A DNA stretch of 63,501 nucleotides from NCBI RefSeq assembly GCF_026571515.1, contig NW_026865652.1:1-63501 (forward strand), in the 5' to 3' direction. The position numbers were made by a program, and so were the translations under genes. Shown in pieces: positions 8,373 through 62,892 of the stretch. Source of the DNA: Ruditapes philippinarum. Taxonomy: Eukaryota. Numbering within the stretch: the stretch's first letter is position 1; every line of letters begins with the position of its first letter. The notes under the pieces are model-generated. The model searched no databases and was not told the origin of the DNA. It was given only the letters and a program-made list of their open reading frames with translations.

Positions 8373-9770
8373 TAATAATAATAATAATATCTTTATTTAA
8401 AGAAGGTTACACATTAAGAACATACAATAACAATCATATATATCTTATTTCCAATGTGGCCTTCTGAAATAGAAAACAACAACAACAACAACAACAACAG
8501 GACATGCATAGGTAGAAAAATGAATGTATAATATGTAATATTTAGAATATTACAACTCATATACTTTCGACAGACACTCAACAATTTGTTTTAACATATA
8601 CGTATATTGCATCATTCGTTCGTTCGTTCATTCGTTCGTTCATTTATTAATTAATTAATTCATTCATGCATTCATTCATTCATTCACTCACTCACTCATT
8701 CATTCATATGAACATCAAGATATGCTTTGTATTTTTCTTTAAAACATTTAAGGTTATTAACATTACGAATATTTAAAGGTATATTGTTCCAAATGTTCAT
8801 GCCATAATAAGAAAATGTGTCTTTAATATAGTTTGTTTTAGGTCTTGTCCATAATACAATATCTTTTCGTGACCTAGATCTTAAGTTATATATTTTGTTG
8901 TCGGATAAAGTCATCAGTTCTGTCATATAAGTCGGTGCCATGTTATTTAAAGTTTTAAAAACAAGCACCGCCGTGTGGTATTTACATCTGTCAAGGAACG
9001 GTAACCAGTTAAGAGTTTCGAATAGATTTATTGACGGAGATCTTTGTGGTTGCTGTAAAATGATTTTAGCAATTCGTTTTTGTAATTTACAAACATTATT
9101 TATGTAGTTTGTGTTTCCTTTACCCCATATAATACAACAATAGTCCATAATGGGCAATATATATGCATTGTAAAACAATAATTTCATATCAAAGTGCAAA
9201 AAATACGATATCTTTTTCAATAAGGCAATTTTTCCGTTAAGTTTTTTACAAACATTGTCAATTTGCAAGTGCCATTTTAAGTTGTCATCTATGCAGATAC
9301 CCAAGACTTTGTGATCAGTTACATTTTCAAGAGCTATTTCATTTATCTTAAGATACAATTTTCTCATAATATTTACTTTTTGTCTTGTTCCTATTACCAT
9401 ACATTTTGATTTATCTGGATTTAAGGCCATATTATTTATTTTGCACCATTTGTCAATGTTATTTAAATGATCTTGAAGTTTTATTTCTACTTTTGATATA
9501 TTTTCTCCGGACTCATAAAGAGTAGAATCGTCTGCGTATAAATCAATTTTTATATCATTACCAATGAAAGCTATGTCATTTATGTATATTAGAAATAATA
9601 AAGGTCCTAATATTGAGCCTTGTGGAACACCGGAAATTATTTTCATTGTCTGAGATTGAAGATTACCTATCTTAACCAGTTGTATTCTGTTAGAAAGATA
9701 TGACTTAAAAAACTTAACGACATTTTCAGAAAAATGATAAAGTTTAAGTTTATGCAAAAGTATATTATTG
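8373..9770 (-). mobile_element. 5'-truncated CR1/L2-group LINE, copy 1
   Basis: RT ORF 8696-9757; 3' UTR with GAAT/GAAC and GTT microsatellites, AATAAA and a (TTA)n tail; near-identical to 35164-36240. Confidence 0.9.
8696..9757 (-). CDS. LINE ORF2 C-terminal part (reverse transcriptase), truncated
   Basis: GVPQGSILGPLLFLIYIND, LYADD, YNLRS and FSY.G...WN.IP motifs typical of CR1/L2-group RT. Confidence 0.9.
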   Translation of the reverse strand: MHKLKLYHFSENVVKFFKSYLSNRIQLVKIGNLQSQTMKIISGVPQGSILGPLLFLIYINDIAFIGNDIKIDLYADDSTLYESGENISKVEIKLQDHLNNIDKWCKINNMALNPDKSKCMVIGTRQKVNIMRKLYLKINEIALENVTDHKVLGICIDDNLKWHLQIDNVCKKLNGKIALLKKISYFLHFDMKLLFYNAYILPIMDYCCIIWGKGNTNYINNVCKLQKRIAKIILQQPQRSPSINLFETLNWLPFLDRCKYHTAVLVFKTLNNMAPTYMTELMTLSDNKIYNLRSRSRKDIVLWTRPKTNYIKDTFSYYGMNIWNNIPLNIRNVNNLKCFKEKYKAYLDVHMNE

Positions 9771-10408
9771 TATTATTATAGATTATATTATTATAGATTA
9801 TTGTGTATTATTATAGATGTTGAAATATGAATTTTTTTTTCAAAACGGCTTATATTAAGTATTTTTATATATATTAACATGATCAGTACATGTGTTGGGA
9901 TTGACAAATATGCATTTCTTTATTTTAAAATCGTTTCGAGCTCCACACCCTACACCTCTGTGAAAGAAATTAGCGGCGCAGCGTTTTGTTTATGTAACAT
10001 TGTAAAATAACCGCCTTGATTCTTCAAATCGCACTTCGCCATGCGTGTATTTTATAAAAGAAAATAATTTCTAAGACGGCATAAAAGTGAAATGTATGGA
10101 ATAAATCTTTACTGTATACCAACATTATGAAAGTCTTTTGCAAAACAAAAAACAACAAACAAACAAAAAATGAAGCGGGCACCTGTTTCATGAAATAAAT
10201 TTCCGAGTATTTTTCCCTGTACCACGGTCATCATAAAACAATTTCATACCTACGTGTGTGTGCGTGTGTGTGTGTTTTTCTTTCTATAAACATCTTCAGC
10301 TTTTTGGAATAAACTAGCAAGAATTATGAAACTGCGTGGATAAGAAAATAAAAAAAAACAAAATTACATGGAATGTTATTTCCGCACATACATGTATAAT
10401 GTCGAGGC

Positions 10409-16286: not shown

Positions 16287-16919
16287 GGACAAATAGTTTT
16301 AAATATTTTTGACATTTATAATAAATGAATATTCACCATTTGTGCAATGTTCTTCTTACCGCTTTTTATCAGTGTCTAAATGTAATATAATATCAGATAA
16401 TCTTGAATTTTAAAATGAGAAAAGATTCACAATATATTCAAGTTTTAATCTACGTTCTTTTTCAAGGATAAGAAAGTCACACAGAACGCGCATAACAAAT
16501 TATCACCTTTCATGATTTATATTGTCACCTTGGCGTTGTCACCATTTAAAATCGGCGTATATCCGGATGTATTGCAAGCTTAATGTTTGATTTTTAAAGA
16601 CGCTATATTGTGTGAAATGTTTGAAATTATCAATAACTTAGCTCAATCGAATAATTATGCATAAGTAAACACCCCAAAACGCAACGCCTATATTGCTTGT
16701 ATGTATTAAATATTCTAATTTAATCCGTTATGCACAGGAAATTTTACGATATCTAAATTGATACAAATCTTGCATTTAAATACTATGAATATTGAATATT
16801 AGATTCAGATGAAACTCGCAGTTAGATCGACGAATTATGAAACATATATTGACATTTCATAAAAATTTATAAAATTTTGTTTGTGATATAGTTTTTGTCA
16901 ATTCTTAAATTTCGTGAAA

Positions 16920-18452
16920 ATGTGGAAAATGCGTTATGACGATTATTCTGAACAGGGTGAAGGATTCTATAATGTGTCAGTGCTACCAGAGGACGACAAA
17001 AACAGTGAATCAACGACATATGTCGTGTCCTGGGTAGACCCTATCTTACGTCCGACATCAACAAGAGGCTATAACATAGCAGACACAGAAGTACGAATAA
17101 ATGACGTGACGTTGAATGACGTCAGAGATGATGACACGGACACATACTCGTGGGTCAAGGTTGAAGACACTGCCCACCTACCGGGAGTTCAATCAGTAGC
17201 GGTTTCTGATACATACAAAGATGTTTTTCATACAACATACAAGGGTCAGAACACGAAACTTCGTGTCGATAAAGAAAACTTGACAATGGCAAATAACGAT
17301 AGAAAAGAGCAAAAAAATAAAGAGATTGACACGAGTCTGATATATGGCAACCATTGTTCCATTTTTCTGGCTTTCCTTGTAAGACTTTTGCTGATTGGTC
17401 ACAATGTGTTTGCAGTTTGGCGCGTGACAATAGAATATAACGACTACATGTATTGGTTACTGGCAGTCACGAATTTCTTTCTGATATTTGAGGGAGTTGT
17501 CGTCATAATAAGAAATGCTGGAAAGGAATACTCATGGTAAGATAATAAGCTACTGTAAATTTATAAATTAGTTTTCAACTTCTTCTAAATAGTGGTCGTT
17601 GTGTTATGAATTCGTTTTATTTTTTTATAGATCTATATAAATGTAGTCAACATTTTATTTTGCAGGTGGTCTCCATGCCTCCTTTTCTATCTTGCTGGAA
17701 CAGTGCCTGCAGTGTGGTTCCTTCAGCTGAACCAATACCACAAGGCATCAACAACTTCACAAGCTGAGGTAAATATATAATTTTCATTTCTGTCACACAT
17801 TGTTAATCGAACAGACATTAGATCTAGATACGATCTAACTTTTGTTAAAAATTAACATTAAATTATTTTATTTAAGCATGTGTTTTTGAATAATGGGCTC
17901 TGTATTTTTCAGCAAGGGAAACCAGCCATTGACATATGGGTGATACTTACAGCGGAAACTCTCGTGTTTGCCGTTCTCATCAGCCGATGGCTATTGCCAC
18001 GTCATAAACTTTCAGAAAACGTCATCTCTGACGTCTTAGTAGAATTTATTTTCATAGCGTCTGACGTCATGGAGTTTCTAGCTGTCTTTGACAATGATCG
18101 GGTAAGAGGAGATTTGAACATTATCTACGTGGTTCTGGCGGTCTGGACAGCGAGTTTGGTCCAGTTTGTTCCTGTTTTCAAGCGAAAGAATCGTTACCGA
18201 AAGGGTGAGAAGGACGGCTGTGTCAGGCAATGCTGTGGAATGAATGGAGTGAAAATAATTGCTATTTGTATGAATGTTTTTCTACAAAATTTGCCTTTTC
18301 TTGTTGTACGACTCTATCTTATTATTGAGATGAGGATAATTACATACAGTCTGATATTTTTCGTGCTGAAAAATGTTGTATCCTTGCTATTTCTTTTCTG
18401 TGTAATGATTGGGATTTTCCTATGTCAGAACAAGGGTGAAAAATCGGATTAG
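16920..18452 (+). CDS. TMEM26: TMEM26-family protein, paralogue 2 (exons 16920-17536, 17666-17768, 17913-18452)
   Basis: Phase-compatible GT-AG introns at the same positions as paralogues 1 and 3; HNVFAVWRV, GKEYSWWSPCLLFYL, SRWLLP, ASDVMEF, PFLVVRLY, FFVLKN. Confidence 0.85.
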
Positions 18453-22760: not shown

Positions 22761-25324
22761 ATGGATTTAAAAAAGAATATAGATTCCACGAGTAACGAAA
22801 ACAAAAAAGTGAAAAATGGATTTAAATGGAGTACAATTATCGCGGCATTGAGCGTGCGGTGTCTTCTGGTGCTGCACAACATTCTCGCGGTCTGGAGAGT
22901 TGTAATATCACATGATAACGCGAGTTTCTGGGGTCTGGCATCTCTAAACATACTGATTCTAATTGAAACATATCTCGTCATTCGACGAAACTATGGGAAT
23001 GAATGGAAATGGTAAAGTTTCATTCTTATTCATAATCATTTACTATTAAAATAATGGCCGGCTTGTGTTTGAAATATGTTCTGGTTATTATCTAAACAAA
23101 TTATCTAATGACAAGTAAATCAAGTAAAAGTTAATCAAGTTAATAGTTACGCTCGAATTTCAGAAAATTAAAAATACACATCGTAAAATTAAGTTATAGT
23201 ATTTTCATATATTCATCTACGTATTTTTGTTTTTCTTTTGTTTGTGTTTGTTTGTTTCTCTTGTTTGTTTGTTTGTTTGTTTGTTTGTTTCTTTCTTTCT
23301 TTGTTCTGAATAAAATACAATTTTAAGATACATACTATCTGTATCAAGTTAAATACAAAATCAACATGTTTCTAACGATGAAGTGTTATCGCCAGGTGGT
23401 GTCCGTGTTTCTTGACGTATCTGTTAGCAACATTACCGTCTGTATGGCTACTTCAGCTCAGCTTGTATGACAGCCTTGTCTCTACAAATACAGACACTAA
23501 TAGTGTTCAGCCTACACCACAGGGTCAGATAGCGACAACATCACCCATATCCGCGTCTTCTGAAATAGGCAACTTTACCAACACAACGTCATCTGTGTCG
23601 ACAACCATGGTAACAACTACCAATGAGAGAATAGCGGTAAGTTGAAATTACTAGATCTTATTAAATAATTTATTTATCAGTTCAATAGTTTCTAACTGTA
23701 AATAAAAATGGAAGGAAAGATTAAAATAACAAGAAGAGAATCATGTTAGGTATTAGGGTCCAACAACATAACTTATTTTATTGATGACATAAAATACTTT
23801 TAGTCTGCGACAAAACGCATCGGTGTAAGAGGTGTTGCATTGCATTTTCATTAACGTGGATTTTTCAGTATATCCATTTTTGTTATCTATAAAACTAGAA
23901 AACAAGTTCGTTTTGCAGACATTTGGTAACTTTATATTCTAAAGTTTTGTATCATCTTATTTAAATTATTCAGTTGATTAAGTTGATTGGGATATTGTTT
24001 TGGTGTCTGATTTTTGGCACAATTATTAGTTAGCTTTCCCTACGGCATTGACTGAAGCGTACCCGTCCTGTCACAGTAATGAATATATACTTGAACGGAC
24101 GTAAAGGGAATTCCGCATCGTACTTTGATTTCACAACTGCGCAGATCTAAACATACAATTGTCAAGGGGTCCTCTCAATGTATGCAGTGCACAGCTGATC
24201 ATTCTTTTGCTTTTTATACGTGCGTATTTAAATAGCGTAAAACCTCGTGATAATATCGGATAGACTGATTGCTTAACATAAAATGTTCAGTCGTTGACCC
24301 AACTGCAATGACGCCAATACTGAATCAAAACAATAAACAACCAACTGCCTATTCTCCAAAGTTCATGAAAGGACAGCGATTTTATGTCTTGATTCCAATT
24401 ACAAGTACTTCTATGCTAAATTGATTTGTTTATTTTATTTTTTATAAATTTATACTATCATGGAAGTAAAAGAAAATTTCTAATATAAGCTGAAGTTGCT
24501 TTTGTTATAAACAAAATATTGGTGTACAAGTATACTTAGATTGTACGTTTTAGGTTAGTATGTTTAGATCTACAAATATTTACATCTCATAAACAGTCAA
24601 ATACTTCGACGGGGTGTCTGTAAGGTCACTATTTAAATATCATATAATTTCTATTTTACAGTCAAGTATTGATGAAATTCTTGCACTAGAAGATACCACA
24701 TGGATAGTTGTCATTCAGGAGTCACTGGTGTACCTGCTTGTGTTTGGACGCTGGATCTTACCGCGTTCAGAAGTGTCACGTGCAGCACTGTCTGACCTCC
24801 TATTAGAGTATCTAGCTATAGCTTCTGACATTATGGAGTTGTATGCCATATTCGACGAGGATGTTGTACAAAGCAATTTCGGAGCTACTTACGCTATTCT
24901 CACCATTTGGTCAATCAGCTTTTTGCAATTTGTACCTGTCCTAGTATTCAAACAAAAATACCGCCATTTACAAAGTCCCCGGATGAGCAAAATAAATCGC
25001 GCATGCGGAGAGTACTTCGCAGAGGTTGTTGTAACTTTAACAAGCATTTTACTGCAGGATGGACCTTTTCTCTGTCTAAGACTTTACATCATGTTAAGGT
25101 TCGAGCTGATCACATATAGCTTGGTGTTTTTCGTACTGAAGAACATTGTGGCGGTTCTTCTGTTGATATATCGTCTGGTAATTCTTTGTATCCGACTACC
25201 ATGCTGTTACCATGACAACGGAGAAGTTGTAGATGTTGAAAGTGTCGATTTTTCGCGTCCAGTGGTTCTACAAGTTAAAGCAGATATGTTTCGTAGGTTG
25301 GAATATTATAAAACGTACAATTAA
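22761..25324 (+). CDS. TMEM26: TMEM26-family protein, paralogue 3 (exons 22761-23011, 23396-23636, 24662-25324)
   Basis: Phase-compatible GT-AG introns; HNILAVWRV, GNEWKWWCPCFLTYL, GRWILPRSEVSRAALSDLLLEYLAIASDIMEL, LQDGPFLCLRLY, FFVLKN. Confidence 0.9.
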
Positions 25325-29920: not shown

Positions 29921-30238
29921 AACATTATAAAAGTAAACATTACTTTAACAAACATGACATTAAACATTTGACCGTAGAAATGTGTCTTTAAAGTAGGGCA
30001 TTATAAGACAGAAAATCGTGTAGACAGCTCAATTTACCGGACATAGCATTTCGATTTTTTTTTGAAATCGTGAATTGAAATTAATCTTTAAATTTCAATT
30101 CAATTCAAATTTTATTGCATTTTTCGACAAAACTTTGCCTTTGGCAATACATACAAAACATACATAAATCACTTGAAATATGACATACATTCAATACAAA
30201 TACACAATGTTCACATAAAGTGCAGAAACATATCAAAT

Positions 30239-33200
30239 TTACAATTCTTGCATTGTTTCTAAAACACTAGATCTTAATGCGAATGCTTTATCTAAAAATT
30301 TACATAGTTGCAATATTCTACTTTTATTTCCTGATGACATAATAGAATAGAACTTATTTAAAGTTGGAAAAGATACATGTTTTATAAAAGATTTTCTCAG
30401 TTCTGAATATAAGGGACAACCTCGAAACAAAACTGTGTTTTATATTTCTTATAGTAGTCAAGCTTTGGCATATTATCTATACAGTCATGCCACTGTTGTA
30501 AAAATTGATCTCTTATTCTCTGCTTAAATAACATATTATAATTGACATTAACTGCATAGTCATAAATAATGTACGGGAAGCCCATATCAGTAATAACAGA
30601 GTGAACGCGTTTAGCCCAGCATTTTTCATTCCCATTAATACATTGGTCTAAATAAATATGGTATATAGGCGCCTGCTGGCGCTTAACGATTTTATTCCAA
30701 AATTGTAAAGCTCTTTCCTTACATAGAACAGACAAAGGAAATTTACCTAGTTCCCCATAGATAGCACAATTTGGGGTCTGTCTTTTGACACCTAAAACAT
30801 ATTTATAAAATCTTATCTGTAGTTTATCAATATCTTTCAGCTTATATATACCCCAAACCTCTGACCCGTATAATAAGATTGGAGCTACCATTCTTTCAAA
30901 TAAGTATAATTTTGTTTTAACATCGAATTTAACTCTATCAAAGAGTGCGAGAAGATTGTGGTAAGCTCTTAAACCTTGATCTGATAGTGCTTTCACAGCT
31001 TCAACAAAGCTACCTGTGTAAGAAAATTTCACTCCTAAATATGTAAAACTATCTACTTTTTCAACCAATTGACCATTTATAAATAAATTAAAATTATGGA
31101 CTGACTTACGTTTTTCAAATACACATATTTTAGTTTTATTAACATTTATCTTCAAACCCCAATTACATGAATATTCAAAAACATTATCAACTTGTGCCTG
31201 CAAGCTTGCAGGGTCAGTTGTAAACAACACAATATCATCCGCAAAAAGTAACAAATATTTAGATAAAAGGTTTAGGTCGTTGTTAGACATTTTGTTAAGA
31301 TCTATACACTGATCAATATCATTAAGGAATAAAATAAAAAGCAAGGGAGATAATGGCTCGCCTTGTTTTAAGCCTAGAGTTACCTCAAAAAAATCAGAAA
31401 AATTTGATTTAGAATCAATTTTGACACAAGATAATACAGAAGAGTAAATGGATTTTAACATAGTAACCATTTTACAGCTAACGCCATTTTCAATCAATTT
31501 AATCCACAATGCATCTCTTATTACAGTATCAAACGCTTTTTCATAATCTATGAAAATACAATATAGTTTTGATTTGTTGTCAAGTATCTTCTGGATAAGG
31601 GAATGTAGAATAAAAATAGCGTCAGCTGTAGATCTAGAATCTCTAAAACCAAACTGTACATCGTTAAAAATTTGTTCTGATTCACACCATTTATTTAACC
31701 TATTACGTAGTACTAGGGAAAATATTTTTGCCATACAATTTACTAACGTGATGCCACGGTAATTTGAAGGATTTTCGGGATCACCTTTCTTATAAATAGG
31801 TACAATTACCCCTTTACACCATGCTTCTGGGTAAATGCCAGTCTCAAAGATTTTATTGAAAATAGTACACAAATATGGGCTTATAAATATATTAGCATCA
31901 ATGAAAAAGTCAGCAACAATATTTAAATAATCAGCACTCTTATTTCTATTCAACGAAGATATAGTTTTCGACACTTCCTCCACACTGATCGGACAATCTA
32001 ACTGGTCAATATATAACGGTGCATCACGTGACTGAATAAAATCGTCTGCATTAAAATTACTGTGCTGCAAATTAGAAATATTTGAAAAATGGTTAACAAA
32101 ACTATCTGAATCTAAGTTGTTTCTATCCGACGGGCTACGTTTGAATTTATTTATGTATTTCCAAAACTTACGCGGTGAGGTTTTTGACATTTGTGACATA
32201 TTAATTTTTTCTTTAGAGTAAAATATCGCTTTTGCTCGTCTCTTAACCTTTATATATTCCCGTCTACTTGACAAGAATAACAACTTATTATCATTACACT
32301 TATTTACATTAAAGGCTCTTTTTTTATTCAAAAAATCTGCTTTAGCATTTCTGCAATTCACATTAAACCAGGCAGCTTTTTTAACCTTTTTACAAGGCTT
32401 TTGACAAAATGTTTTCCCAAAGCACTTAAAAGAGATTTCAAAAATTTCGTCGGACAAAGAATTTACACAATTATCAACATCAGTTTCGCCCAACACAAGT
32501 TTCTGTGACAAATTGTCAAATATATGCCTTTTTGCCTCCAATAGATTTAAAAAAGATTCTGTTTCATCGCTGTTCCATATAATTTTTTGTTGTTTTTCAG
32601 GTCTGGTATAATTAATATTTAAATCATTTTTGTAGCTTATTGAAAAAGAAATTGGGCAGTGATCAGAAAACTCAGTCATGTCCATAACACATACGTCATT
32701 TAAAGATGAAAAATTCTCAAACTTTGTTATTAAATAGTCTACTGTACTCTGTGTCGATCTGTTTCTATATTTAGAATGAAAAGTACAATCGCCGGGTTCT
32801 AGCCGGCCATTAACAATACGTAGGTTATTTTCTTTACACATTGACAATAATTTGTTTCCAAAAGAGTTCACATGAGTGTCCGTATTTTTACGTGTTGTGG
32901 TGCTTTCTTCCACTTCCGGTGGGAGAACTACATACCGGTCCAAGTTAATATTGTCTACGTAATCGGGTTTTTCACCCGTCCTCGCATTATAATCTCCCGT
33001 ACAATAAACATGCCCTAGGTCACTATATTTACGGATTTCTTCATTGAGGTTATCAAAAAAATCATATTCAAATAAGGTTGAGTTAACATTTTTATAAACA
33101 TATGAGTCTTCCGGTGGTATATAGCAAGTACTAATATAAATGTCTTTATCAGATCCAAAACATTCTTTTTTAAGCTTAAGCCAAATTATTCCTTTGTTAT

Positions 33201-33477
33201 TAATGCTCACTATTTCTAATTTATTAATAAATTTTTCCTTATAATATATAACTATGCCACCGCTATTCCGTTTTGCTTTCGATTTACTATTTGGTCTTGG
33301 GCAGTTTGCATACTCAAACCCATTAATTTTTAAATTCGAAAATTTAGATGTCCATGCTTCCGTCAGAAGTAGTAAATCATAACCAGAAATAAAGTTTAAA
33401 AAATCACTATCATTCAGTTTAGAATTCAAGCCTTGTATATTCCAAGAGAGTACATTTAGGTATTCCCATGAGGGTTC
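30239..33477 (-). CDS. LINE ORF2: APE endonuclease plus reverse transcriptase (frameshifting deletion near C-terminus)
   Basis: SWNIQG, LTEAW, GDYNAR, VDY, SDHCP (APE); NYRGITL, QFGFR, DYEKAFD, GLKQGEPLSP, LFADD, YLGV (RT). Frame is open from the ORF1 stop to 30397; the true C-terminus is in the 30239-30430 frame. Confidence 0.92.
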
Positions 33478-34390
33478 CTAATGTATATTGCCGGGGGCAG
33501 CAGTTTCCATTCGTGTCGGGTTACTATTAGTTCCAGTACCGGGTAAAGATGTAAGGTTCTCAATCTCTGGTATAGGAAGCGCGTCAACCGTGTACATTTT
33601 ATTGTTAACGTATAGCTTATCAACATGTAGACTAGCACGTATGCCTGCTTCACGCGCTTTCTTAAGGGACGGATATAGTAATCTACGACGCTGTTGCACA
33701 ATAACCGGATATTGGTCACTAACACTGCGATTGGACAAATCACTGTTGTCAAAGACTCTCTGTTTTATATTTATCTTATCTTTGAAATAGTTGAATTTTA
33801 CGACAATGGGTCGTCTTTTATTAACTTTGTATTGCCCAATTCGGTGCGCTCTATCAATTTTAATAGATTCATCCGCGTCATTCATATTGAGTGTTTCTTT
33901 ACAAAATTTAAGGATTTTTGCTTCACAATTTTCCTCCTTGCGCTCTGTAGCGGTTTCACACTCGGCAAAGTCGTAGAAAAGTAGATTATCCCGCATTGAT
34001 CTTGTTTGAATATCAATCAAATCTTCCGATACCCGGTTATGATCACAGATCAAAGACTCGTAATCCTTGCGGATTGCCTGGTGACTCTTTTTGTTTTGGT
34101 CTAACTGTTTATCAATTGAAAGCTGTTTTGCTTGAATTTCGTCACATGAACTAGAGTCGTACGCTCTACTGGCCTCAATTTCGGTGATTTGACTTTGACA
34201 ACTGTTCACTTTTGTTTCGAGAAAAGTCACTTTAGTGTCAATGGAGGTCATTTTCTGTGTCAAATTAGATATTTGCTTCTCAATATTGTCTAGCTTTTGA
34301 AGTTTCGTATCAAAAATTTCAAATTTTGAGTCAATTTTATTTTCAAGTTTTTCAAATAAAAGTTGAATGTCTACGCTGCCAATGCCAGGT
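33478..34390 (-). CDS. LINE ORF1 (coiled coil plus L1-type RRM/CTD), N-truncated
   Basis: Heptad-rich region then RSMRDNLLF, IDRAHRIG, RPIVVKF, SDQYP, DKLYVN; frame stays open upstream of 34263 to about 34400 without an ATG. Confidence 0.85.
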
Positions 34391-35163
34391 GATATAATCA
34401 GCTAGGAAACTACGACTATTGAATGGCAAACGACAGACATGCCTGTTATGAAGAGGCCAATATATAGGGTGTAATTGAAATTAACACGTTTAACTCAATT
34501 AACGTATTGATTCTTCATGATCCTTAAACGTATGAAACAGTTTGATATTCAAATGGAATTCTATTCTTTGTCATTCAATGTCCTTTTGGTCATCATGTAG
34601 CATGTTGCAAAAGCCAAAAAATCTGTTTTATTTACATTTCATGTAGAATTTCCTCCCATGGTCTTACGATTTCCTTATATGTCTTAATTTGCATTTCTTT
34701 GTAGAAGACAACGATGAGATACTGTTTGAACTAAATTTAAAATTACTTTTTATCATAAAAAAATTGTTACGATTGTCTCCTGAGATAACGTTGAGAAGAA
34801 TTTAAAGTGTAACCCATCAATATTCGGCATGCGCAGAACAGAATATCCCCCCGCATGACCAGATCATGAAATAACTCGTAAACAAAAGGGTATGTTTGTA
34901 AATAAAGAACTGAATCAACAACATTTACATGAGAGTGTTTTTGTTGTTATTTACTTTGAAACAGAAAGTGTGTGTACGATTCAGACCGGATGATTTTTAC
35001 GTCACGTCAAAGTGTTATAACACTAGTGTTATATCGTTTTTATGTGATAAATGTTTATTTCATGCTTTCCAGTGTTTAATTGTAATATATCAGATGATTA
35101 TATTCTGATAAACCACTAGTGAAATTTATAAAATATAATTTTCACTGTAACCGGACTTTACCT

Positions 35164-35312: not shown

Positions 35313-36240
35313 GGACATTCATAGGTAGAAAATGAATGTATAATATGTAATTTTTAGAATAATACAACTCATATACTTTCGATAGGCACTCAACAATTTT
35401 TGTTTAAACATATATGTATATTGCATCATTTGTTCGTTCGTTCATTCGTTCGTTCATATATTTATTCATTCATTCATTCGATCACTCATTCATTCATATG
35501 AACATCAAGATATGCTTTGTATTTTTCTTTAAAACATTTAAGGTTATTAACATTACGAATATTTAAAGGTATATTGTTCCAAATGTTCATGCCATAATAA
35601 GAAAATGTGTCTTTAATATAATTTGTTTTAGGTCTTGTCCATAATACAATATCTTTCCGTGACCTAGATCTTAAGTTATATATTTTGTTGTCGGATAAAG
35701 TCATCAGTTCTGTCATATACGTCGGTGCCATGTTATTTAAAGTTTTAAAAACAAGCACCGCCGTGTGGTATTTGCATCTGTCAAGGAACGGTAACCAATT
35801 AAGAGTTTCGAATAGATTTGTTGACGGAGATCTTTGAGGTTGCTGTAAAATGATTTTAGCAATTCGTTTTTGTAACTTACAAACATTATTTATGTAGTTT
35901 GTGTTTCCTTTACCCCATATAATACAACAATAGTCCATAATGGGCAATATATATGCATTGTAAAACAATAATTTCATATCAAAGTGCAAAAAATACGATA
36001 TTTTTTTCAATAAGGCAATTTTTCCGTTAAGTTTTTTACAAACATTGTCAATTTGCAAGTGCCAATTTAAGTTGTTATCTATGCAAATACCCAAGACTTT
36101 TAGATCAGTTACATTTTCAAGAGCTATTTCATTTATCTTAAGAATTAATTTTCTCATAATATTTACTTTTTGTCTTGTTCCTATTACCATACATTTTGAT
36201 TTATCTGGATTTAAGGCCATATTATTTATTTTGCACCATT
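35164..36240 (-). mobile_element. 5'-truncated CR1/L2-group LINE, copy 2 (ORF 35486-36220)
   Basis: Near-identical to 8373-9450 including 3' UTR and (TTA)n tail. Confidence 0.9.
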
Positions 36241-36519
36241 TATTATTATCTGAATGCGGATGAAAAGAAAATCAAACTAAATGGAATAACAAGCAGAAAA
36301 AAATGCCGCCATACGTAAATTTTGCTTCTATAGGAAAATAAAGTCGATGTCACCATACATCATGTTAAAAATGTAACAAAATTAGAGAAATTTAACAGAA
36401 CTATATTTCAAAATTGATGATGTGACGTCATGATGTGATGACGTCACAAAGGAGAATGCGCGACGTTTTATAGCGGCAAAATCTATAAAAAAAACTTAAA
36501 ATCACTTAAAAAGCATAAA

Positions 36520-37468: not shown

Positions 37469-40400
37469 TATGCTGGTGGTATAAAAGAAACACTGCTGAT
37501 AGAGTTTGCGCATTTTGGACACTTGATAAAGGACAAGCCGAATGAAAGCACACTTAATGCGTTTGATTACCTTGAACTTGACGATGCCGATTTATCCGAG
37601 ATTGAAGAAACAGCAGGTGAAACTATACAGTCGCTGTCAGTCAAAGCAGAAATGCCAAGCAAACGTCGAGAGAGGCGTATGTGTAATTTGTCTCCATGTT
37701 CTTCAGATAAAACAATAAATTACAACTCAAAACATGATTTTGACAACTTATCATTTTACATAAAATATAAAATTTATATACAGATTATACTTAATAACAA
37801 CAAATAGTTACAAAATCTACCAAAATCGACCGCCTTTCATTTCAATTCGCATTTGTTTCGTTACACAAGTCACACTTAGAACTACTATGAAGCCTTGAAC
37901 ACTTAATCAATAATGTTTCATACATCAGCTCGCCATCTTTTTATAATAAATTACCATTTGTCACATTAAAACATTATCCTTTTCTTAAAATTCCTTACTT
38001 TATACAGACCGATTCATAACACATATGTAAGACATTTTGTAAATTCTTATTCCAGAAATGAGGGTCGGCGGTGCAAATATATCACCATTAACTGATACGC
38101 TCAAATCTACCGCAGTACAATCTATTAATCAACAAAGCAAACGACAGTCTGACGTGACTGCCACTCCCCAAACCAGCAGTCGACCTATCAGACAGCAAAC
38201 TTTAACAGTAAAAGGACGACACCCGCTTACAATACAATCATCTCCATTGGACAAAACACAACAATCATTTAATTACTTTCAGAAAAGGCAAGAAAGCTCA
38301 TTACAACACCAAGAAGACTTTGGCGTCTTAAAAAATATCTCTCCTGCGTTCAAAAACAGATCTCGGGAGAGATCAGATTCTCTTGATTTCGATGACGATT
38401 TCATATCAGAGACAGGCGATTTAAAAGGAGAAAACCTCGAGGAAGAACAGCTTAGAGAAAAGCATGAATACTTTGGCGAAGAATTTTATCTTTCGGACCT
38501 GAAGGACCATTGCAAAGGTCATCTAAAGGGCACAAAAGAGATACTTCAGCAAAAGAAGAAAGACCTGCATGAACGTCGGGAAGAAGCTAAACGCCAAAAA
38601 GAAGAGAGAGGAGGAAATAGTGTGAAAATAAGCATACTCCCAGAACTACCAAAACTTGATAGTGAAGATTTCGAGGCGTTCAGAATGCATAATGAAACAA
38701 TAAAAATGCCTGATGAATTACCTACACTTGAAGAATTTATAGAATTTTTTAAATCTGATGAGGATTACGACCCTAGATACAAAAACAAAGTCCGACAAAA
38801 GAGTAAGAAAATTGCTGAGAGATACTATAAAGAAAGGGAAACGCACAGATCTAACATATCGTTTACTATTGGGAATATTCCAGAAGAAATAAGAAACATT
38901 AATACATATCGCCGTTGTACACGCAAACAATCATTTACTCGAGGAAACAAACAGAAAGATAATTCTGAATGTAAAGGCAAGGGGAATACCGGTATCACTC
39001 GTACGTTAGCTGTTCAAGAATCTGATCAACAACGTAGGAATATACCTCAACTTCAAGATAAAAAAAGAACGGATTCTATGTCAAATATTTACGAACATGG
39101 ACAAGAGGTTCTCGGAATCACCGACTCTGAACCTTGCAAAGATCATTATATCAAAGGAAACAGGCACTTAGTAGTGGAGAATATTGAAAAAGACCATTCT
39201 ACACCTAGAGAAAAGGATAATTCTGAACGTAAAGAACAAACTATTTCTACACCTAGAGAAAATGATAATTCTGAACGGAAAGAAAAAACTATTTCTACAC
39301 CTAGAGAAAATGATAATTCTGAACGGAAAGAAAAAACTATTTCTACACCTAGAGAAAATGATAATTCTGAACGGAAAGAAAAAACTATTTCTACACCTAG
39401 AGCTGAACGTAAAGAAAAAACTATTTCTACACCTAGAGAAAATGATAATTCTGAACGTAAAGAAAAAACTATTTCTACACCTAGAGCTGAACGTAAAGAA
39501 AAAACTATTTCTACAACTAGAGAAAAGGATAATTCTGAACGTAAAGAAAAAACTATTTCTACGCTTAGACAAAATGATAATTATACACCATGTTTGAAAA
39601 ACACAATATTCCCAAAGATACAAATGTGGTCTGATAATGAAACTGACTCGTCCGATACCGGCTCTAATGAGTCATCAAGTAGTGAATCATTGGAAGAAAG
39701 TTTTGATACTAAGAAGCTTAACATGAAGTATAGCGTTGAACGTCTCAAAAAGAAACGACGCAGTAAAGTGAAAAAGAAAGGCGGGTTTATTAAAGTCCTC
39801 GAAAAGTACTACACCATGCAGAATGCTCTCAATGTCTTCAGCAAAATCTCGCCGGTTAAAAGTGTCAAGAAAGGGCGACTAAAAACACGTCCATTTGGCA
39901 AGAAAAAGCAGCAAGGTAAAACTCTCAGTTTTGACTTCTTCGTGAAAAAATCTGTATGTACGAGCTTATATTATATTTGATTTCATATGCACAATAATTT
40001 TGCAAATAGTTTCTGTATGTATAGATTTCAACCAAAGAGGATAACTAACCAAATGCGAAATGAAAAGATAATATATATTTTCTCATATTAAAAATAGTCT
40101 CAAGTTAATTTTGAATTGTTTTTCAAACAAACAAAAAACTTTAAGATGTTATATGAGAAGAACACAGTTAAACATAATTAAATAGTGCATGTACTAAGTA
40201 AAAATATGTGTTATTTGTACATTGAATCTTAAATGTATAAATTGGACGATGGATAACGAATGACAGTTGCTTAGTGCTTTCCCATCCCTCCTGCCAACAT
40301 TACTTCTACTCTCTCACCATATTACTTCTGCACTCTGATGTATAAATTTAATGGATAAGTTGTACATTTTCAGATAAACAAAAGGAAGGGGAGCAATGTG

Positions 40401-51617: not shown

Positions 51618-52631
51618 TCAATGAGAGTTCATGTGAAGTTTCAGCTGAATTTTCTGTGGGAAACCTCTGGTACATCCTGGTACCTTACATTTGAATGGGT
51701 TATCACCGGTGTGTAATCTCTCATGCACTGCTCTAGCATATTTACTGTTGAATGACTTTGGGCAGAAGTTACAGTGGAAACTTTGATGATCTCTATGGTA
51801 TCGTTGATGCTGTGTGAGTGACGATCTTTTAGAAAACTTCCTGTCACAGATCTTACATGTAAAAGGTGTCTTACCAGTATGTATGTTCATATGATCCTGT
51901 AAACGACTGTTGCTAGCAAACTCATGTTGACAGACGTCACAGAAATGTCCATCATGAAGACGTTGATGTTTTGTGAAGAAACAATGAGCTACAACCTTAT
52001 CACACAGTCCACACTGAATTCTCTCATCATCAAGCTTCACATGCTTTGTAACATATCCAAACTTACAGAATAACACTTTCTTCAGGTTACTTCTAATTCC
52101 TTGCATCTGATGGAGATACTGATGCCCCTGAGCATCCTTAAAGTCCGTACATAGAGCATTACACACATGACACCAGAAAGATATATTATTACAAGCTACA
52201 AATCCTGGCACAGAGTCACAATGATATACCTGGTTCTCACTATATGCACTATAAACAACAGCAGGTGCTGACTGAATCTCACTAGAACTGTTGTCATGGC
52301 TACCTAACAATGCTGCGATGGAGAACGGGTGAGGTACCACTTGAGGTGCTGGAGAAGAGACTTCATGTTTAATGTAGATACTCTCATCAGAACACATTGA
52401 GGCGGCACTGCTTTCAGAACTATCTGAGTCACAAGATCCCTGTGTAGATACAGTGTGGTGAGGCGACCATGAATAACCTACATCAGTGGCAGGACGGAGA
52501 TCTTCCTGGACAACTAGACGATCACAGGTATGACGTGTAAACTTGTTCCATGTTAAATCTACAGGTGTGTGAGAACCAGTCTGTTTGGCTCTGGCTGCAT
52601 TCAACAAGATGTGTGACATTAACGCATCCAT
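51618..52631 (-). CDS. C2H2 zinc-finger transcription factor (337 aa, six fingers, single coding exon)
   Basis: Acceptor ttgcag|ACT ATG; six CxxC...HxxxH units with HTGKTPF and HTGDNPF linkers; PVDLT and FSIAALLG motifs; AATAAA near 51475-51480. Confidence 0.88.
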   Translation of the reverse strand: MDALMSHILLNAARAKQTGSHTPVDLTWNKFTRHTCDRLVVQEDLRPATDVGYSWSPHHTVSTQGSCDSDSSESSAASMCSDESIYIKHEVSSPAPQVVPHPFSIAALLGSHDNSSSEIQSAPAVVYSAYSENQVYHCDSVPGFVACNNISFWCHVCNALCTDFKDAQGHQYLHQMQGIRSNLKKVLFCKFGYVTKHVKLDDERIQCGLCDKVVAHCFFTKHQRLHDGHFCDVCQHEFASNSRLQDHMNIHTGKTPFTCKICDRKFSKRSSLTQHQRYHRDHQSFHCNFCPKSFNSKYARAVHERLHTGDNPFKCKVPGCTRGFPQKIQLKLHMNSH

Positions 52632-53207
52632 AGTCTGCAATAAAATATACAATAATCTTTTAGAAAGAACCAGTATCAGGGCTTTCAAATATTACTATTA
52701 TATTGTTACCATTACTACAATATCAGAATGAATAAAAATAAATTAATCAACTGCCCCCATTTACTTCTGTTGTTTATATTCCTGTATTTTCAAGTGTTGT
52801 TTTTTTCAACAATATACAACATTATATTCCTTTTTTTATTAAATTTCCATTCTATACTGCGTATTTAGCCATTTGTCCCTTCTTCTTCTGAATCTGTAAT
52901 CTATCAAATGTCTTCCAACGTAATGTTGTGCATCGTTCAAGTATAATGTGAAGTTCTATTTTATATTGATAACAATTATTCAGATATTTTTACAGAGTAT
53001 TAGGAACATTATGATTTAATTGAAAACAACTACATGATTTTGATATACCCAGATAATCCAAATCTTTCTTATCTAAAAATTAAAAATCATATTTGTCAGT
53101 TACTTAAATTATTTAATCAGATTTTTGTGGTTTTCTCATGGAAGTTTTTAATTAAGAATAAATTGGTTTTTCAGAATTTGCATAATTAATTGTAATAATG
53201 TTCTTAC

Positions 53208-57600: not shown

Positions 57601-58335
57601 TTATGAAAAATAACATCTTTGCCTGCAGTTTTCTGGATCCAAGTTTTTTTTATGGCAGTTTAAAGCACTTGAAATAGTTTGAGTCTGCTGATCAAAATAA
57701 TGTTGCCAGGTCTTGTCTACAGTGAAAATCCTATCTAAAATGTGACAACTTCAACACAATACTAGAGACTCAAAAACAAAAACAGGTTGGAACATTACTT
57801 CTTTTGCTTCAAAAGTTATGTTGTAGAAACTAATTGTTTACAGATGTACATTCTAACAAGACAGTACTTATGTGGCTATATTTTGTTCTTTTAAGCCATA
57901 CAAAGGAAAATAGCCACATAAAAGCATACAGAATGAATGGCATCAAAGGAAAAGCACATGCCAATGCTTTTGCGACTCTGTTAAAATGGTATTGCATGTT
58001 TGTGCATATACAAATGTATTTTTACAGAACAGAACAGAACAGAACATGAATTTTATTTTAGATTTGAGCATTTCGCTCCTCATCCATAACATAATTATAC
58101 ATTATTATGTCAAAGTCAAACAATATAATGATATAACACAATATTGAAAATGACAGTATCTGTGGTACAAATGACAAAAGAAGGTATAGAATATGTATTC
58201 AGTATCATTTAACGTGAAATTCTTAACGTACATGACAATAAATTGAGCATTTATTTATTTATTATATATTTATTAATTATTTATTGTAAAAGATTATGCC
58301 TAATTCTTAATGCACAATTTAGGAAACAAACTAAA

Positions 58336-61300
58336 TTATTCAACATTTTTTTCATTTCTGGTTGACAACAACTGGGTAAGTTTAAACATAGATGGTCTTT
58401 CATAATAATATTTATCAATGTAACGTTTTCTTATAAGTCTGTAGCAGGGACACACACAAATCATATGGAATTCATCCTCAATGTCTCTGGATTGACATAC
58501 ATTGCATGTTCTTTTGCCTCTTTCAATTCTATTTTGACCATATCGTCCGGTTTCAATCCTAAGGCAATGTGCAGATATCCTAAACTTGGTAATAGCTGAT
58601 CTATAATTTTTTCTACTTAAGATACTCAAATACTCAGCATATTCAATATGGTGCTTTAAATGTTTATATAAATGTAATACTTGATTGCTCTCTAAATCGC
58701 TACTCCAATTCTGTGTGAATGTATCAATCAGTCTTTGTCTGAACAGAGTTATAAAGTGGTTCACATTTACTGTTAACGGTGTTTCAAACACGTATCCAAA
58801 GCCATGTTCATATAATAACTTCTTTACTTTTGAAACCCAGTTAATCTTATTATTACATAAATCCTCTATAACAGTTCATATACTTTACTTATTATACAAT
58901 TATTAGAATTTGTGATCTTAAGAAAATACTTGACTATTTTAACATTTCTGTTTACATACAACGGATATCGTCCTAATTCTCCATATATAGCTACACTACT
59001 GGACGATAATTTTACATTTAGAATTCTTTTGCTAAATTTATCCTTACAGTGTCTTTTTTAAAGTAAATTCCCGATTTTTAAAAGAGTAACTTAAAATTGA
59101 GGAAACAAATGAATCAATTAAACTCAACATTGTCTTTGGTGTAAAATGAAAGTTCTTTGTATTAATTATTAAACAATTCATAGCTTTAAGCGCCTTGCCG
59201 ACGAACATCTGTGTATTATAGTTAAAATTGCCATTTGAGTCAAATACCACACCTAAATAGCTGAAATTGTTAACAATAGCTAAATTTGTGTCATTGTAAG
59301 TCCATTTTTCATTTTCACGCAACGGTCCACGCTTTCTAAAAACCATAACTTTGGTTTTTTCAATGTTAACGGTTAATCCCCATCGCCTACAGTATGTGAG
59401 CAAGTCATCTAAACTTTGTTGTAATCCTTCTACAGTGTCCGAAAATAGTACCATATCGTCTGCGTATAAAAACAGCACCAGAGTCAAATCATCAAATTTT
59501 AAGCCACTTTCTGGTCTCGAACCAATGTACAACTCTAGATCTTCAATAAACATAGACCACAATAACGGTGAACATATCTCTCCCTGTTTTAGGCCCACTG
59601 CTATTTCCATGAAGTCCGAGAATTCGTTTCCATGACGTACTCTACATTTCACTTGCTCATACATTGATCTTATGACCCTGAGCAATTTACCGTTTATTCC
59701 CAGTTTTGACATTTTGAACCACAATGCGTTCCGGTATACACTATCAAAACATTTTTGCATATCTATAAAGGTAGTGTAGAGGCGTGTACCATTATTTAAC
59801 ATGTGATTAACTATACTGTGTAGGCAAAATATCGCATCAGTGGTTGATAATCCTTTCTTAAATCCAAATTGTGAATCTGATATTATGTTATGTCTATCAC
59901 CCCAGTCTGACATTCTCTTATTTAATATTGATGTGAATATTTTCGACATAGAACTAACTAGTGTTATTCCCCTATAATTATCGACAATACTAGCATCTCC
60001 TTTTTTAAACACTGGTATAATGATTCCTTCCATCCATGCATTTGGAAAATGTCCAGTCGATAGTATAACATTGAAAATATCCCGTAGATGCCCGCATATG
60101 ATGTCACATGTTTCAATAAAATATTCATTTATGAGGTCATCACTCCCACCTGCCTTGCCTCGTTTCAAACAACTTAATTGCATGTCGCACTTCATCAATT
60201 GTAATTACAGAATCTAATTCGCGAAAATAGGGTCATCATAACAATATTGGTTATTGCAGTAATTCTCACTTTCTGGATCAGTAGTAGTGTTAATGCTATC
60301 TGATAAATTCCTAAAATAGTGACAGAATTCTTGCACAGATATGTTTTCGTTCAGTTGTGTTTTTTTTCTTTGAAAAATATTTCCAGAAATCGCACGGCCT
60401 TTTACTTTTAAGTGCTTCAATTTCTCGCATCTTTATAAGTTTACTCCTATTGCGCTTTACTTTTATCAAAGATTTATATTGTCTCTTTTTTAACATTAAC
60501 TGGTGTCTATTTTCATTTGTCTTCACTTCATTAAATAATCGTAATGCTTCCAAATACTCTAACTTTCTTTCTCTGCACGAGTCATCAAACCAATCTGATT
60601 TTTTCATCACTTTTGTAGTATCAAATTGTATATTTTGTTTTCGCATGGTTAATTCCTTGTGAAACAATGGCTTTGCCTCTTCGTTTATTATTTGTGCGAA
60701 TCTGTCAACCATTTCATTTACTTTGATGTTATCAAATACTTCCTCCTCTGAATAGCTTATTAAATTGTTTAATTCAGGCAATCTGCCAATCAATCTTCTT
60801 CTAAAAGTATCTCTTTTATCTGCAGACCATTTCGTTGACTGTAAAGATTTTAAATTGCTATCATCTCGTGTTATAGTGTTGATTGAAATAGTAAATTCTA
60901 TAATTGCATGGTCTGAAAATATATTAAAATCAGAAATATTAAACGTTTTAATATATTTAAAATTGCACTGTTTAGCAAGAAGGTAATCTATAACAGTACT
61001 CCCATTGTATCCACAATATGTATACGGTCCTGTCGATTCTAATCGACCGTTACATATTCTTAAACCGGTCGCTTTGCACATGTCTAATAACTGTAAACCG
61101 TAAGAATTAAACTGTGTATCCATAGACGTGCGATCAAGCGGGATGTCTGGCACGTAGTCATCTCCGTCCAAAATTGAGTTCATTCTGTCATATTCGATAA
61201 AATCCGGTTTAAGTCCAATTCGGCTATTCATATCTCCAGAAACCAATACCGTTCCTCGTTGACTAAAAAAGCTTATATCATTTTCTAAAATGTCAAATAA

Positions 61301-61705
61301 ATTTTGATTACATACATTATAAGCAGGCGAATCTTGTCCCCATATATAAGTGGCACATAGATATATGTCTTTATCTAACATAAAGAATGATTTATCCAGC
61401 TTTATCCATATGATTGTGTCAAAGTGATTTCTAATAATTGAAATTCCTTTCGCTATATAGTCTCTGTAAAACAACATAATACCACCACTACTTCGACGTG
61501 CATTTCTGTGTTGAAATTTGCGATAGAAATTGTGCGATGCATATCCTTTCAATTTTATATTACTATCTTTAGATGTCCATGATTCTAGAAGAAAAATAAT
61601 ATCATATTTAGATACTATATTACAGAAGTCTTCGTCCTCTTGTTTCTCTTTAGATAAGCCATTACAATTCCATACGGCAATCGAAACTACACCTTCTTGT
61701 AATTC
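58336..61705 (-). pseudogene. LINE ORF2 (APE-RT-CCHC-like) broken by several frameshifts
   Basis: WNCNG, LESW, GDMNSR, IDY, SDHA; NYRGITL, QFGFK, GLKQGEICSP, LYADD; RISAHCLRIETGRY...CNVC...EDEFH...CP spread across ORFs 60311, 60214, 59044 and 58336. Confidence 0.9.
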
Positions 61706-62781
61706 CTACGGTACCGTCCCATACGGACCATCTGTATACACTTTACCATCCACGATAAGTTTGTTATATTTGATATATGCTTCCTTTTTTGCCTCTCGAG
61801 CCCTTTTCATAATTGGAACAAGTAATTTCCTTTGTGAAACAACTTCCGGCGGATATTGATCATGCATGAATAGTCCAGATTCTCTAGGATTGACATTATC
61901 TTTGAATGATTTTACGTAGTTTTTTGTCTTAAGGTTGTTGAAAGTAACTAATACATTTTTTGGCTTACTTTGTCTTCGAACGCCAATTCGTCTAGCACTC
62001 TCTATTTCTAGTGTTGCCAAACTTTCCTCGGGGATCTTCAAATCGTCCTGAAAGTATTTTTTGACATTTCCAAGTGTCTGTTCGGCTGTTTCATCCTTTG
62101 ATTCTTTGATCCCACCAATGATCAAATTACACATCATAGACTTAGCTTGGATATCAATAATAGTCTCTTTTAATTTCTTATTTTCAGACTGTAAAATTGA
62201 TACCTGCTCTTTTGTTTTATCCAAATTAAAATCATGTAATTCCACCATGTCCTCCACGGAACTTAATTTATCCTCACTTTTAGCCACTCTTTTATCTAAA
62301 TCAGACCATAACTTATTGAGTTTATCATCCAGTTTTGTAACCTTTTCCTCCACCGATTCTAATTTATTGAGTCTAGTGTTCATTTCCTCAAATTTTCCAC
62401 TAATGAATTTCATCAATTCCTCATTTGTTACTTGTTTTATGCGTTGAAACTCATATGGAGATGTCGCTCCGACATTTTGTGTACATTCTTGCGTAAAATT
62501 CGTTGGCATAACAGACACAGGCGTTCGACACTGATTACTGTACGGTAGTTGTACATATTGCTGAGGGTTATAGTTCATCCCGTTATTGCCTTTAATCTGA
62601 TCCATAGTATAACAATCCGTATTGTTAGAATATATCTGATCATTCACCGAAATGTTTTCCGAGTTTAGTAACTGTAAATATGTACTATTCCCTTGTGAGC
62701 GATTTTCAGCTGTTAGTGTACTGGACAAAACCGTGTCGTCACAAGTTTTGACCTCTAACCTTCTAGAGTCTTTTGTTCCCC
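61706..62781 (-). CDS. LINE ORF1 (coiled coil plus L1-type RRM/CTD)
   Basis: Heptads, KSMMCNLIIGGIKE, IESARRIG, HDQYPPEV..QRK.L, YNKLIVDG; frame open up to the truncation point. Confidence 0.85.
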
Positions 62782-62892
62782 TATTTTACATGATGTCATT
62801 TGTGTCACACAACATAAGCTTAAAGATGTGCTAAATGTTTGCCTAACAATATAAGCACATCATTGAAAAAGAGATTCTTTTCACAGCATTCA

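Follow-up and report, generated by a model that had tools for sequence, protein, structure and literature searches.

Two LINE copies in the window (the whole stretch of 63,501 nucleotides analysed here), and every related family of the same genome with an intact junction, carry ORF1 and ORF2 in a single frame separated by one conserved stop codon, nearly always TAG, and in 27 of 53 families the sequence just after this stop can pair with the 3' end of the element. Judging from these sequence comparisons, we consider it probable (about 0.6) that the elements produce an uncut ORF1p-ORF2p fusion by programmed UAG readthrough stimulated by a helix with their 3' end. UAG readthrough was one of two routes, with non-AUG reinitiation, that the original prediction had put forward. 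A wider reading, to which we give slightly better than even odds, is that RTE-X is a whole clade with a Gag-Pol-like fusion, in which 3'-end pairing would switch readthrough so that reverse transcriptase would be made only from full-length RNA, the arrangement possibly being ancestral and the partner site having moved several times.

Element 1, an RTE-X-type LINE copy, occupies positions 30093..34395 on the minus strand, and all of its features are given on that strand. It is truncated at its 5' end near 34395, same-family copies and RNA contigs ceasing to match at 34392-34396, and its 3' end consists of short TTGAA repeats. The ORF1 remnant (33481..34395) encodes a coiled coil, an RRM, a CTD and a disordered tail and has lost its start codon in this copy; its frame stays open for 307 codons (34401..33481) up to a TAG (33478..33480), the candidate readthrough codon and sole separator of the two ORFs. 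A spacer of 11 sense codons (33445..33477), starting with GA in a type III-like context, leads to the W-N motif of the endonuclease, and ORF2 (30397..33477), encoding an APE endonuclease and a reverse transcriptase, runs on in the same frame for 1026 open codons. Pfam found only Exo_endo_phos and RVT_1 in ORF2, with no LTR, protease or integrase, and the 3' end has an AATAAA and a short tandem repeat. The terminal TAA of ORF2 (30241-30239) and the 3' UTR with its AATAAA lie at 30093..30241. Besides the 5' truncation, a 175-nt deletion near 30420 (site 30415..30425, located by blastn against the same-family 3' copy L312) has shifted the frame and removed a candidate distal partner, and the window copy is thus decayed.

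The minus-strand junction reads exactly as first quoted, and the ORF1 stop does run in frame into the endonuclease ORF. The earliest in-frame ATG of ORF2, expected about 200 codons on, is codon 213 (position 32841), far downstream of the first strand and the W-N motif, and profile positions 4-13 of ORF2 match the first strand and W-N at the very start of exonuclease III structures. An out-of-frame ATG at 33469 closes after 16 codons as claimed, but it is not the only ATG nearby: another lies in frame 10 codons before the stop, within ORF1, and a third out of frame at +26.

To compare relatives in the same genome, we used 120 loci from two endonuclease searches (60 returned as loci and 60 picked from 150 hits), which formed 37 clusters, 36 of them with a junction (the exception being the cluster of L094). 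All 36 families have a single stop 10-13 codons ahead of W-N (35 TAG, 1 TAA), and eight additional families all have TAG in ORF1's frame, so that the one-frame, one-stop junction is present in 44/44 own-genome families with an intact junction (43 TAG, 1 TAA). Among the 119 copies assigned to the 36 families, 113 cover the position: 106 carry TAG, 2 carry TAA and belong to the TAA family, and the remaining 5 are singletons (TAA, AAG, CAG and two deletions), TGG being found in none. The CAG copy (L127) is open from ORF1 into ORF2 and the AAG copy is L034; the siblings of both have TAG. A TAA junction occurs in three lineages (L104, L140 and L165/L205).

The context of the stop is conserved as well. 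At +4, 32 of the 36 families have G and the other 4 have C; +5 is always a purine, and +13..+17 are purines in 32-35 families, in alignment with the stop and not with W-N. UAG followed by G, the hallmark of type III sites, was thus found in 32/36 families, with GAA or GAG after the stop in 15, GAT or GAC in 9 and GGN in 8, the others reading CAT, CAT, CAG and TAA-CGT. The UAGGAA of element 1 is a near match that falls outside the type III hexamers UAGGGV, UAGGUA and UAGGAU. The spacer shows a modest rise in synonymous conservation (1.22, z 2.7). Across 18 full-length ORF2s, the junction has 16 TAG and 2 TAA, as against 3 TAG, 8 TAA and 7 TGA at the terminal stop (Fisher p 3e-5), and +4 is G at 18/18 junctions versus 3/18 terminal stops (p 3e-7). 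Relatives therefore keep a stop rather than a sense codon, and they keep its frame and its UAG-G/purine context, as the original prediction had anticipated.

Outside this genome, we collected 115 loci from metagenome and genome collections, 39 of which include the endonuclease start. Twenty of the 39, which share 24-54% identity with element 1, carry TAG or TAA and are free of Met ahead of W-N; 3 have TAG-G with a Met within the spacer, 2 have TGA, and 14 are of another type (Met-started or RTE-BovB-like, one unresolved). A spacer Met in a few external elements (L216, L217, L229, L179) counts against the readthrough model. In all 15 loci with an ORF1 profile match, ORF1 is in the frame of ORF2, and the distance from stop to W-N is 5-20 codons, once 102, in whole codons throughout. 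Two long open spacers stand out from the usual 10-13 codons, with 102 codons in L229 and 135 in L226. Several of the animal LINE contigs (L216-L221, L223, L228, L229 and others) are filed inside bacterial genome records (Sedimenticola sp., Sulfurimonas endosymbiont of Alviniconcha boucheti), likely as host contamination of bins. Scans of viral contigs found no relatives.

For published consensus sequences, we inspected by eye the first 280-400 bases of 41 of the 84 RTE-X entries in a curated bivalve library (PMC10294476, Additional file 32). In this part of the library, the four entries with a visible junction, from Solen grandis (two), Sinonovacula constricta and Pecten maximus, all have TAG-GA 10-11 codons before W-N, a fifth resembles L228 with TAG-G five codons before W-N, and the sole Proto2 entry with a visible endonuclease start has an ATG 7 codons before W-N. 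Proto2 and RTE-X are sometimes confused (PMC10294476, excerpt). Our elements appear to belong to RTE-X, a label that comes from the by-eye likeness of their junction peptides to these curated entries. A FastTree tree (81 rows, no named references) places stop-type elements to either side of a Met-type branch, its deep nodes being weakly supported; this is a hint that the stop-type arrangement may be ancestral in the clade.

ORF1 is predicted to be an L1-type ORF1p with coiled coil, RRM and CTD: a structure model of a sister-family ORF1 (pLDDT 89.8) had human L1 ORF1p as its top 11 Foldseek matches (E 7.8e-8), and the ORF1 profile matched 2ykp (E 7.5e-4). A phmmer search with the endonuclease alone matched no structure. 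In a group of related ORF2 proteins (P0090, P0091, P0093, P0096, P0098), we observed an N-terminal extension of 200-250 aa with a GDGHC-like motif, which we take to recall OTU proteases; Pfam gave no match to the extension in the two proteins of this group that were scanned.

Element 2, a second RTE-X family copy (58024-62785, minus strand), combines a TAG-GAA junction with a 12-bp long-range helix. Its ORF1 (61709..62785) has the architecture of element 1's and belongs to a different family, the junction TAG (61706..61708) is followed by GAA and is kept in 9/9 copies with exact flanks, and ORF2 (58281..61705) is fragmented in the window copy and shares 33% identity with that of element 1. The proximal strand AAGAAGGTGTAG (61687..61698, +11..+22 after the stop) and the distal strand CTATACCTTCTT in the 3' UTR (58178..58189) form 12 contiguous pairs, one of them G-U, across 3.5 kb. 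Element 2 is a better experimental model than element 1.

To assess such helices across families, we assembled 53 families with a junction, an ORF2 end and a 3' flank (40 own, 13 external), adding 60 longer stretches, leaving out 20 of 88 candidate loci that had no recognisable ORF2 end or too little 3' flank, and dropping L150 (ATG type), L229, L174, L295 and near-duplicate copies. A first duplex signal from 15 elements had come partly from GC-rich flanks, and the test was redone on these families with uninterrupted helices only. For each family, the segment +10..+24 was paired with a stretch around the ORF2 stop that begins 60 nt ahead of it and ends 300 nt past it, the strongest uninterrupted helix was taken, and native partners were compared with swapped ones. 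The mean best helix was -14.7 kcal/mol for native and -11.6 kcal/mol for swapped partners (z -9.3, p 5e-5, 53 families), with z -8.8 for own and -1.9 for external families (p 0.037 for the 13 external families alone). The signal is confined in position: |z| exceeded 2.5 only for those of 33 5' windows that start at +4..+16, and only for those of 31 3' windows at -120..+240 around the ORF2 stop. The threshold of 8 bp or more and -14 kcal/mol or stronger was reached by a helix in 27/53 families, as against 20% of swaps. These 27 helices measure 8-14 bp, start at +8..+17 (mostly +10..+13) and have their distal site at -24..+203. The remaining 26 families, some of them decayed single copies, fall below this threshold and, together with TAA in three lineages, count against a universal rule.

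The helix signal held when partners were permuted inside each clade (p 8e-4 to 1e-4), and sampling a single family from every clade gave a median z of -6.5, -3.6 and -2.6. Swapping with the nearest relative only gave p 0.06, which is not significant, and the reversed-sequence control retained z -2.9. The signal survives the clade controls, and just 25 of 1378 family pairs have 3' UTRs that can be aligned, so that common descent without selection is unlikely to account for the helix. The strands covary between families, as in TGAGAAGCAGC/GCTGCTTCTTA (L049), TGAGAAACAGT/ACTGTTTCTTA (L062), GAGAAAAGTATG/CATACTTTTCTC (L090), GGAGGGTGGAA/TTCCATTCTCC (L305) and, with non-purine strands, TAGCAATCGGC/GCCGATTGCTA (L279). 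In one subclade, the partner overlaps the last codons of ORF2 in a fixed register; 10 of 11 members pair at most positions, and swaps between G-C and A-U alter the final residues of ORF2 (AAS/TVS). Complementarity of a proximal element to a distant 3' end with covariation, a tombusvirus-type trait, was thus found at clade level and in element 2. The only ATG-type control is the single element L150, with a best helix of -8.8 to -11.3, too few to test.

The subgroup of element 1 comprises three families, in which pattern matching found 13 copies (12 with TAG, 1 with TAA) and TGG-GAA stands at +13; it showed no partner in the 3' UTR, ranking 52, 34 and 16 of 53. Its proximal strand, 33461..33469 in element 1 (+12..+20), holds the out-of-frame ATG and can form a 9-bp helix with intact same-family 3' ends, at a site about 295 nt before the ORF2 stop. 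The candidate partner in each of the three families is a 9-bp complement at Ser-His codons, 275-299 nt before the ORF2 stop, at -12.5 to -15.4 kcal/mol, a post hoc choice in related families that is weaker than the helices of other families; equally good sites occur in 1-2 of 23 other families, whose own pairs at the Ser-His site reach -10.3 at best. The window copy has lost this site with the 175-nt deletion. If the partner is right, the out-of-frame ATG would be explained as the complement of a His codon. The partner site may have moved several times, as the positions seen at the ORF2 stop, in the 3' UTR and inside ORF2 suggest.

The original prediction had further suggested a stimulatory fold in the 100 nt downstream of the stop, which half-swap and shuffle controls do not support; the conserved structure is the long-range pairing with the 3' end. 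In some families a local hairpin can be made out by eye at +13..+45, and it did slightly beat synonymous randomisation (p 0.01), but windows from the ORF1 tail did equally well, half-swap controls gave p 0.28-0.75, no covariation was seen, and long-window shuffles also rejected it. Excess local folding was found neither in 99-nt nor in 150-nt windows, nor in element 1 (z -0.25). A large local stem-loop carrying the proximal element, as in tombusviruses, was not found.

According to the readthrough model, most ribosomes would halt at the UAG and release ORF1p (~320-420 aa). A helix of 8-14 bp between +10..+24 and the element's 3' end would stimulate readthrough, the 3' end being paired just outside the mRNA entry channel while a near-cognate tRNA sometimes decodes the UAG, and the product would be a minority fusion of roughly 1,500 aa, which should stay uncut since no protease was detected. 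Its L1-type coiled coil could co-trimerise with free ORF1p on the same RNA. With the stimulator at the 3' end, reverse transcriptase would come only from RNAs that carry the priming end, which would provide quality control and a cis preference of the kind seen in L1.

Type III UAG-G contexts are weak alone and generally need a downstream structure starting near +12 (PMC13517186, excerpt), which is where the structure starts in MoMLV, and the structure spans more than 3.5 kb in CIRV (PMC13517186, PMC3234231, excerpts). The helix start at +8..+17 in the 27 families compares with this expected position, the helix being weak in the subgroup of element 1. Animal viruses avoid TAA at readthrough sites (PMC13517186, excerpt).

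The helix could have another role. Readthrough would then still make the fusion, and the pairing would serve escape from NMD or the presentation of the 3' end to nascent ORF2p in RNP assembly, which we hold to be unlikely, although it comes first among the alternatives. Between the ORF1 stop and the poly(A) signal there are 3.5 kb, a poly(A) tail folded near a premature stop suppresses NMD (PMC2689704, excerpt), and for 26 of the 27 helices the next AATAAA follows 11-213 nt after the distal strand. The helix start, on the other hand, coincides with the place where viral stimulators act with the stop in the A site (PMC13517186, excerpt), and NMD escape needs no such register.

Ranking second, and likewise improbable, is termination at the UAG followed by an in-frame non-AUG restart that yields a separate ORF2p, with the helix holding the ribosome as in SART1. 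Both L1 and SART1 rely on termination-reinitiation, aided in SART1 by a downstream structure (PMC5972666, excerpt), and L1 ORF2 initiation has been described as AUG-independent (PMC5009743, excerpt). ATG-type relatives of our elements begin ORF2 about the same place as the stop type, 10-18 residues before W-N, and TAA is tolerated in three lineages. Yet reinitiation alone demands neither the frame of ORF1, which is kept in 44/44 own families and 15/15 external loci, nor TAG over TAA or TGA. No in-frame ATG precedes W-N in any of the 36 families, as had been predicted, the first one falling at codon 22-349, and an AUG in the ORF2 frame that overlaps or shortly follows the ORF1 stop, as in SART1 and L1, is absent from all 36. 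Nor do the families have a start-like codon in common: up to W-5, 17 of the 36 have a near-cognate start and 19 have none. Conservation of the frame, the bias in stop identity and the type III context lead us to favour readthrough over non-AUG reinitiation.

Removal of the stop in the RNA, either by A-to-I editing (UAG to UIG) or by splicing at a TAG|G 3' splice site, has a very low probability in our view. TAG|G fits a splice acceptor and UAG is a preferred ADAR triplet. RNA runs labelled as mollusc metagenome contain element 1, and in four runs, each from a different study, unbroken contigs cover 33300-33700 with the TAG unchanged and no joint at the stop; one of these runs is on record as RNA and three are guessed to be, and contigs hide rare forms, level and strand, so that minor edited or spliced forms could have been dropped. 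TGG occurs in 0/113 copies, though edited RNA would be copied if the cis preference of L1 holds here. No pyrimidine tract precedes the TAG (0.45 versus a background of 0.43), TAA families cannot be acceptors, and the UAG lies outside the helix (window +1, z -0.4).

That the TAG is a nonsense mutation or an assembly error in a single-ORF element, as the open L127 and L034 copies might suggest, is refuted by their TAG siblings, by 43/44 families, by other hosts and by the published consensus entries, and chance or copy-specific nonsense was rejected in the same way, element 2 having TAG-GAA too and 106/113 copies TAG.

Readthrough of this kind appears so far to have been described for viruses and not for LINE-type jumping genes. 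The closest parallel to the readthrough model is p36/p95 of the tombusvirus CIRV with its PRTE-DRTE pairing (PMC3234231, excerpt), which shares the UAG-G type III site with a polymerase after the stop, a post-stop site that pairs with the RNA 3' end about 3.5 kb away and is needed for readthrough, and a proposed culling of truncated templates that favours cis replication. In CIRV, however, it is a 6-nt bulge of a large local stem-loop that pairs, whereas the LINEs have an 8-14 bp helix at +10..+24 and no supported stem-loop; they also reside in an animal host, and their function in readthrough is a predicted one. MoMLV Gag-Pol likewise has an in-frame UAG between an RNA-binding structural ORF and an RT ORF, in a purine-rich UAG-G context with a structure near +12, but there the structure is a local H-type pseudoknot placed after an 8-nt spacer, and the fusion is cleaved by a protease, whereas the elements here are non-LTR, with a partner 3.5 kb away and no protease domain.

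Within RTE-X, our elements share the APE, the RT, a C-terminal Cys/His motif and the by-eye likeness of the junction peptide to the curated bivalve entries (PMC10294476, excerpt). They differ in having an L1-fold ORF1, some RTEX elements having an esterase ORF1 (PMC3905857, excerpt), and one branch of relatives starts ORF2 at a Met. Human L1 and SART1 resemble them in having an L1-fold ORF1p followed by EN-RT on one RNA and an expected low output of ORF2, but the ORF2 of L1 follows a 63-nt spacer and has an AUG, that of SART1 overlaps ORF1 at UAAUG, and both elements make separate proteins by reinitiation (PMC5972666, excerpt). The 2A/StopGo sequences of APE-type LINEs are also a virus-like recoding in non-LTR elements, with the difference that 2A splits one ORF into two proteins, whereas the stop-type junction would join two ORFs (PMC3708506, excerpt). 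Two stop-type elements (L147:438, L156:896) carry 2A-like motifs (GDVESNPGP, GDIETNPGP) in their upstream ORF, which would put two recoding devices in one LINE.

Our literature search found no report of readthrough or of stop/3'-end pairing in RTE-X or any LINE, and no account of RTE-X ORF2 translation; Repbase notes might mention the in-frame stop, and less likely the helix. In the excerpted reviews, L1 and SART1 are said to reinitiate and other LINEs to use 2A (PMC5009743, PMC5972666, PMC3708506), the word "retrotransposon" is absent from the excerpted text of a 2026 readthrough review (PMC13517186), and the excerpts of two mollusc LINE surveys (PMC10294476, PMC11203168) mention neither an in-frame stop nor readthrough.

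It has long been asked how ORF2 of LINEs is translated and what makes ORF2p act on the RNA that encodes it, and the clade would offer a third solution for ORF2 beside L1 reinitiation and the SART1 stop-start. The conserved stop and the covarying helix provide a sequence-level handle that can be broken and restored. If the readthrough model is true, an animal genome would hold a long-range readthrough stimulator with dozens of natural compensatory variants, and RT synthesis would depend on an intact priming end. For this LINE group, which is abundant in bivalves, annotation pipelines cut ORF2 short or give it a wrong start.

Several further features of the window were recorded. At 30110-30150 on the minus strand, the 3' end of element 1 contains a terminal motif (GCCAAAG...GCCGA..TTGC..AATAAA) followed by short tandem repeats that is common to the 3' ends of many families and is probably an RT recognition structure. 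Another LINE family, whose RT has a different C-terminus, is represented by two nearly identical 3' fragments at 8696-9772 and 35486-36271 (minus strand), the latter just upstream of the truncated 5' end of element 1. On the plus strand, 971-1546, 16887-18452 and 24593-25324 are three paralogous exons of multi-pass membrane proteins, a tandem host gene family, and 38043-39980 is a low-complexity frame of 645 codons with a tandem peptide repeat. A C2H2 zinc-finger gene occupies 51618-52691 on the minus strand.
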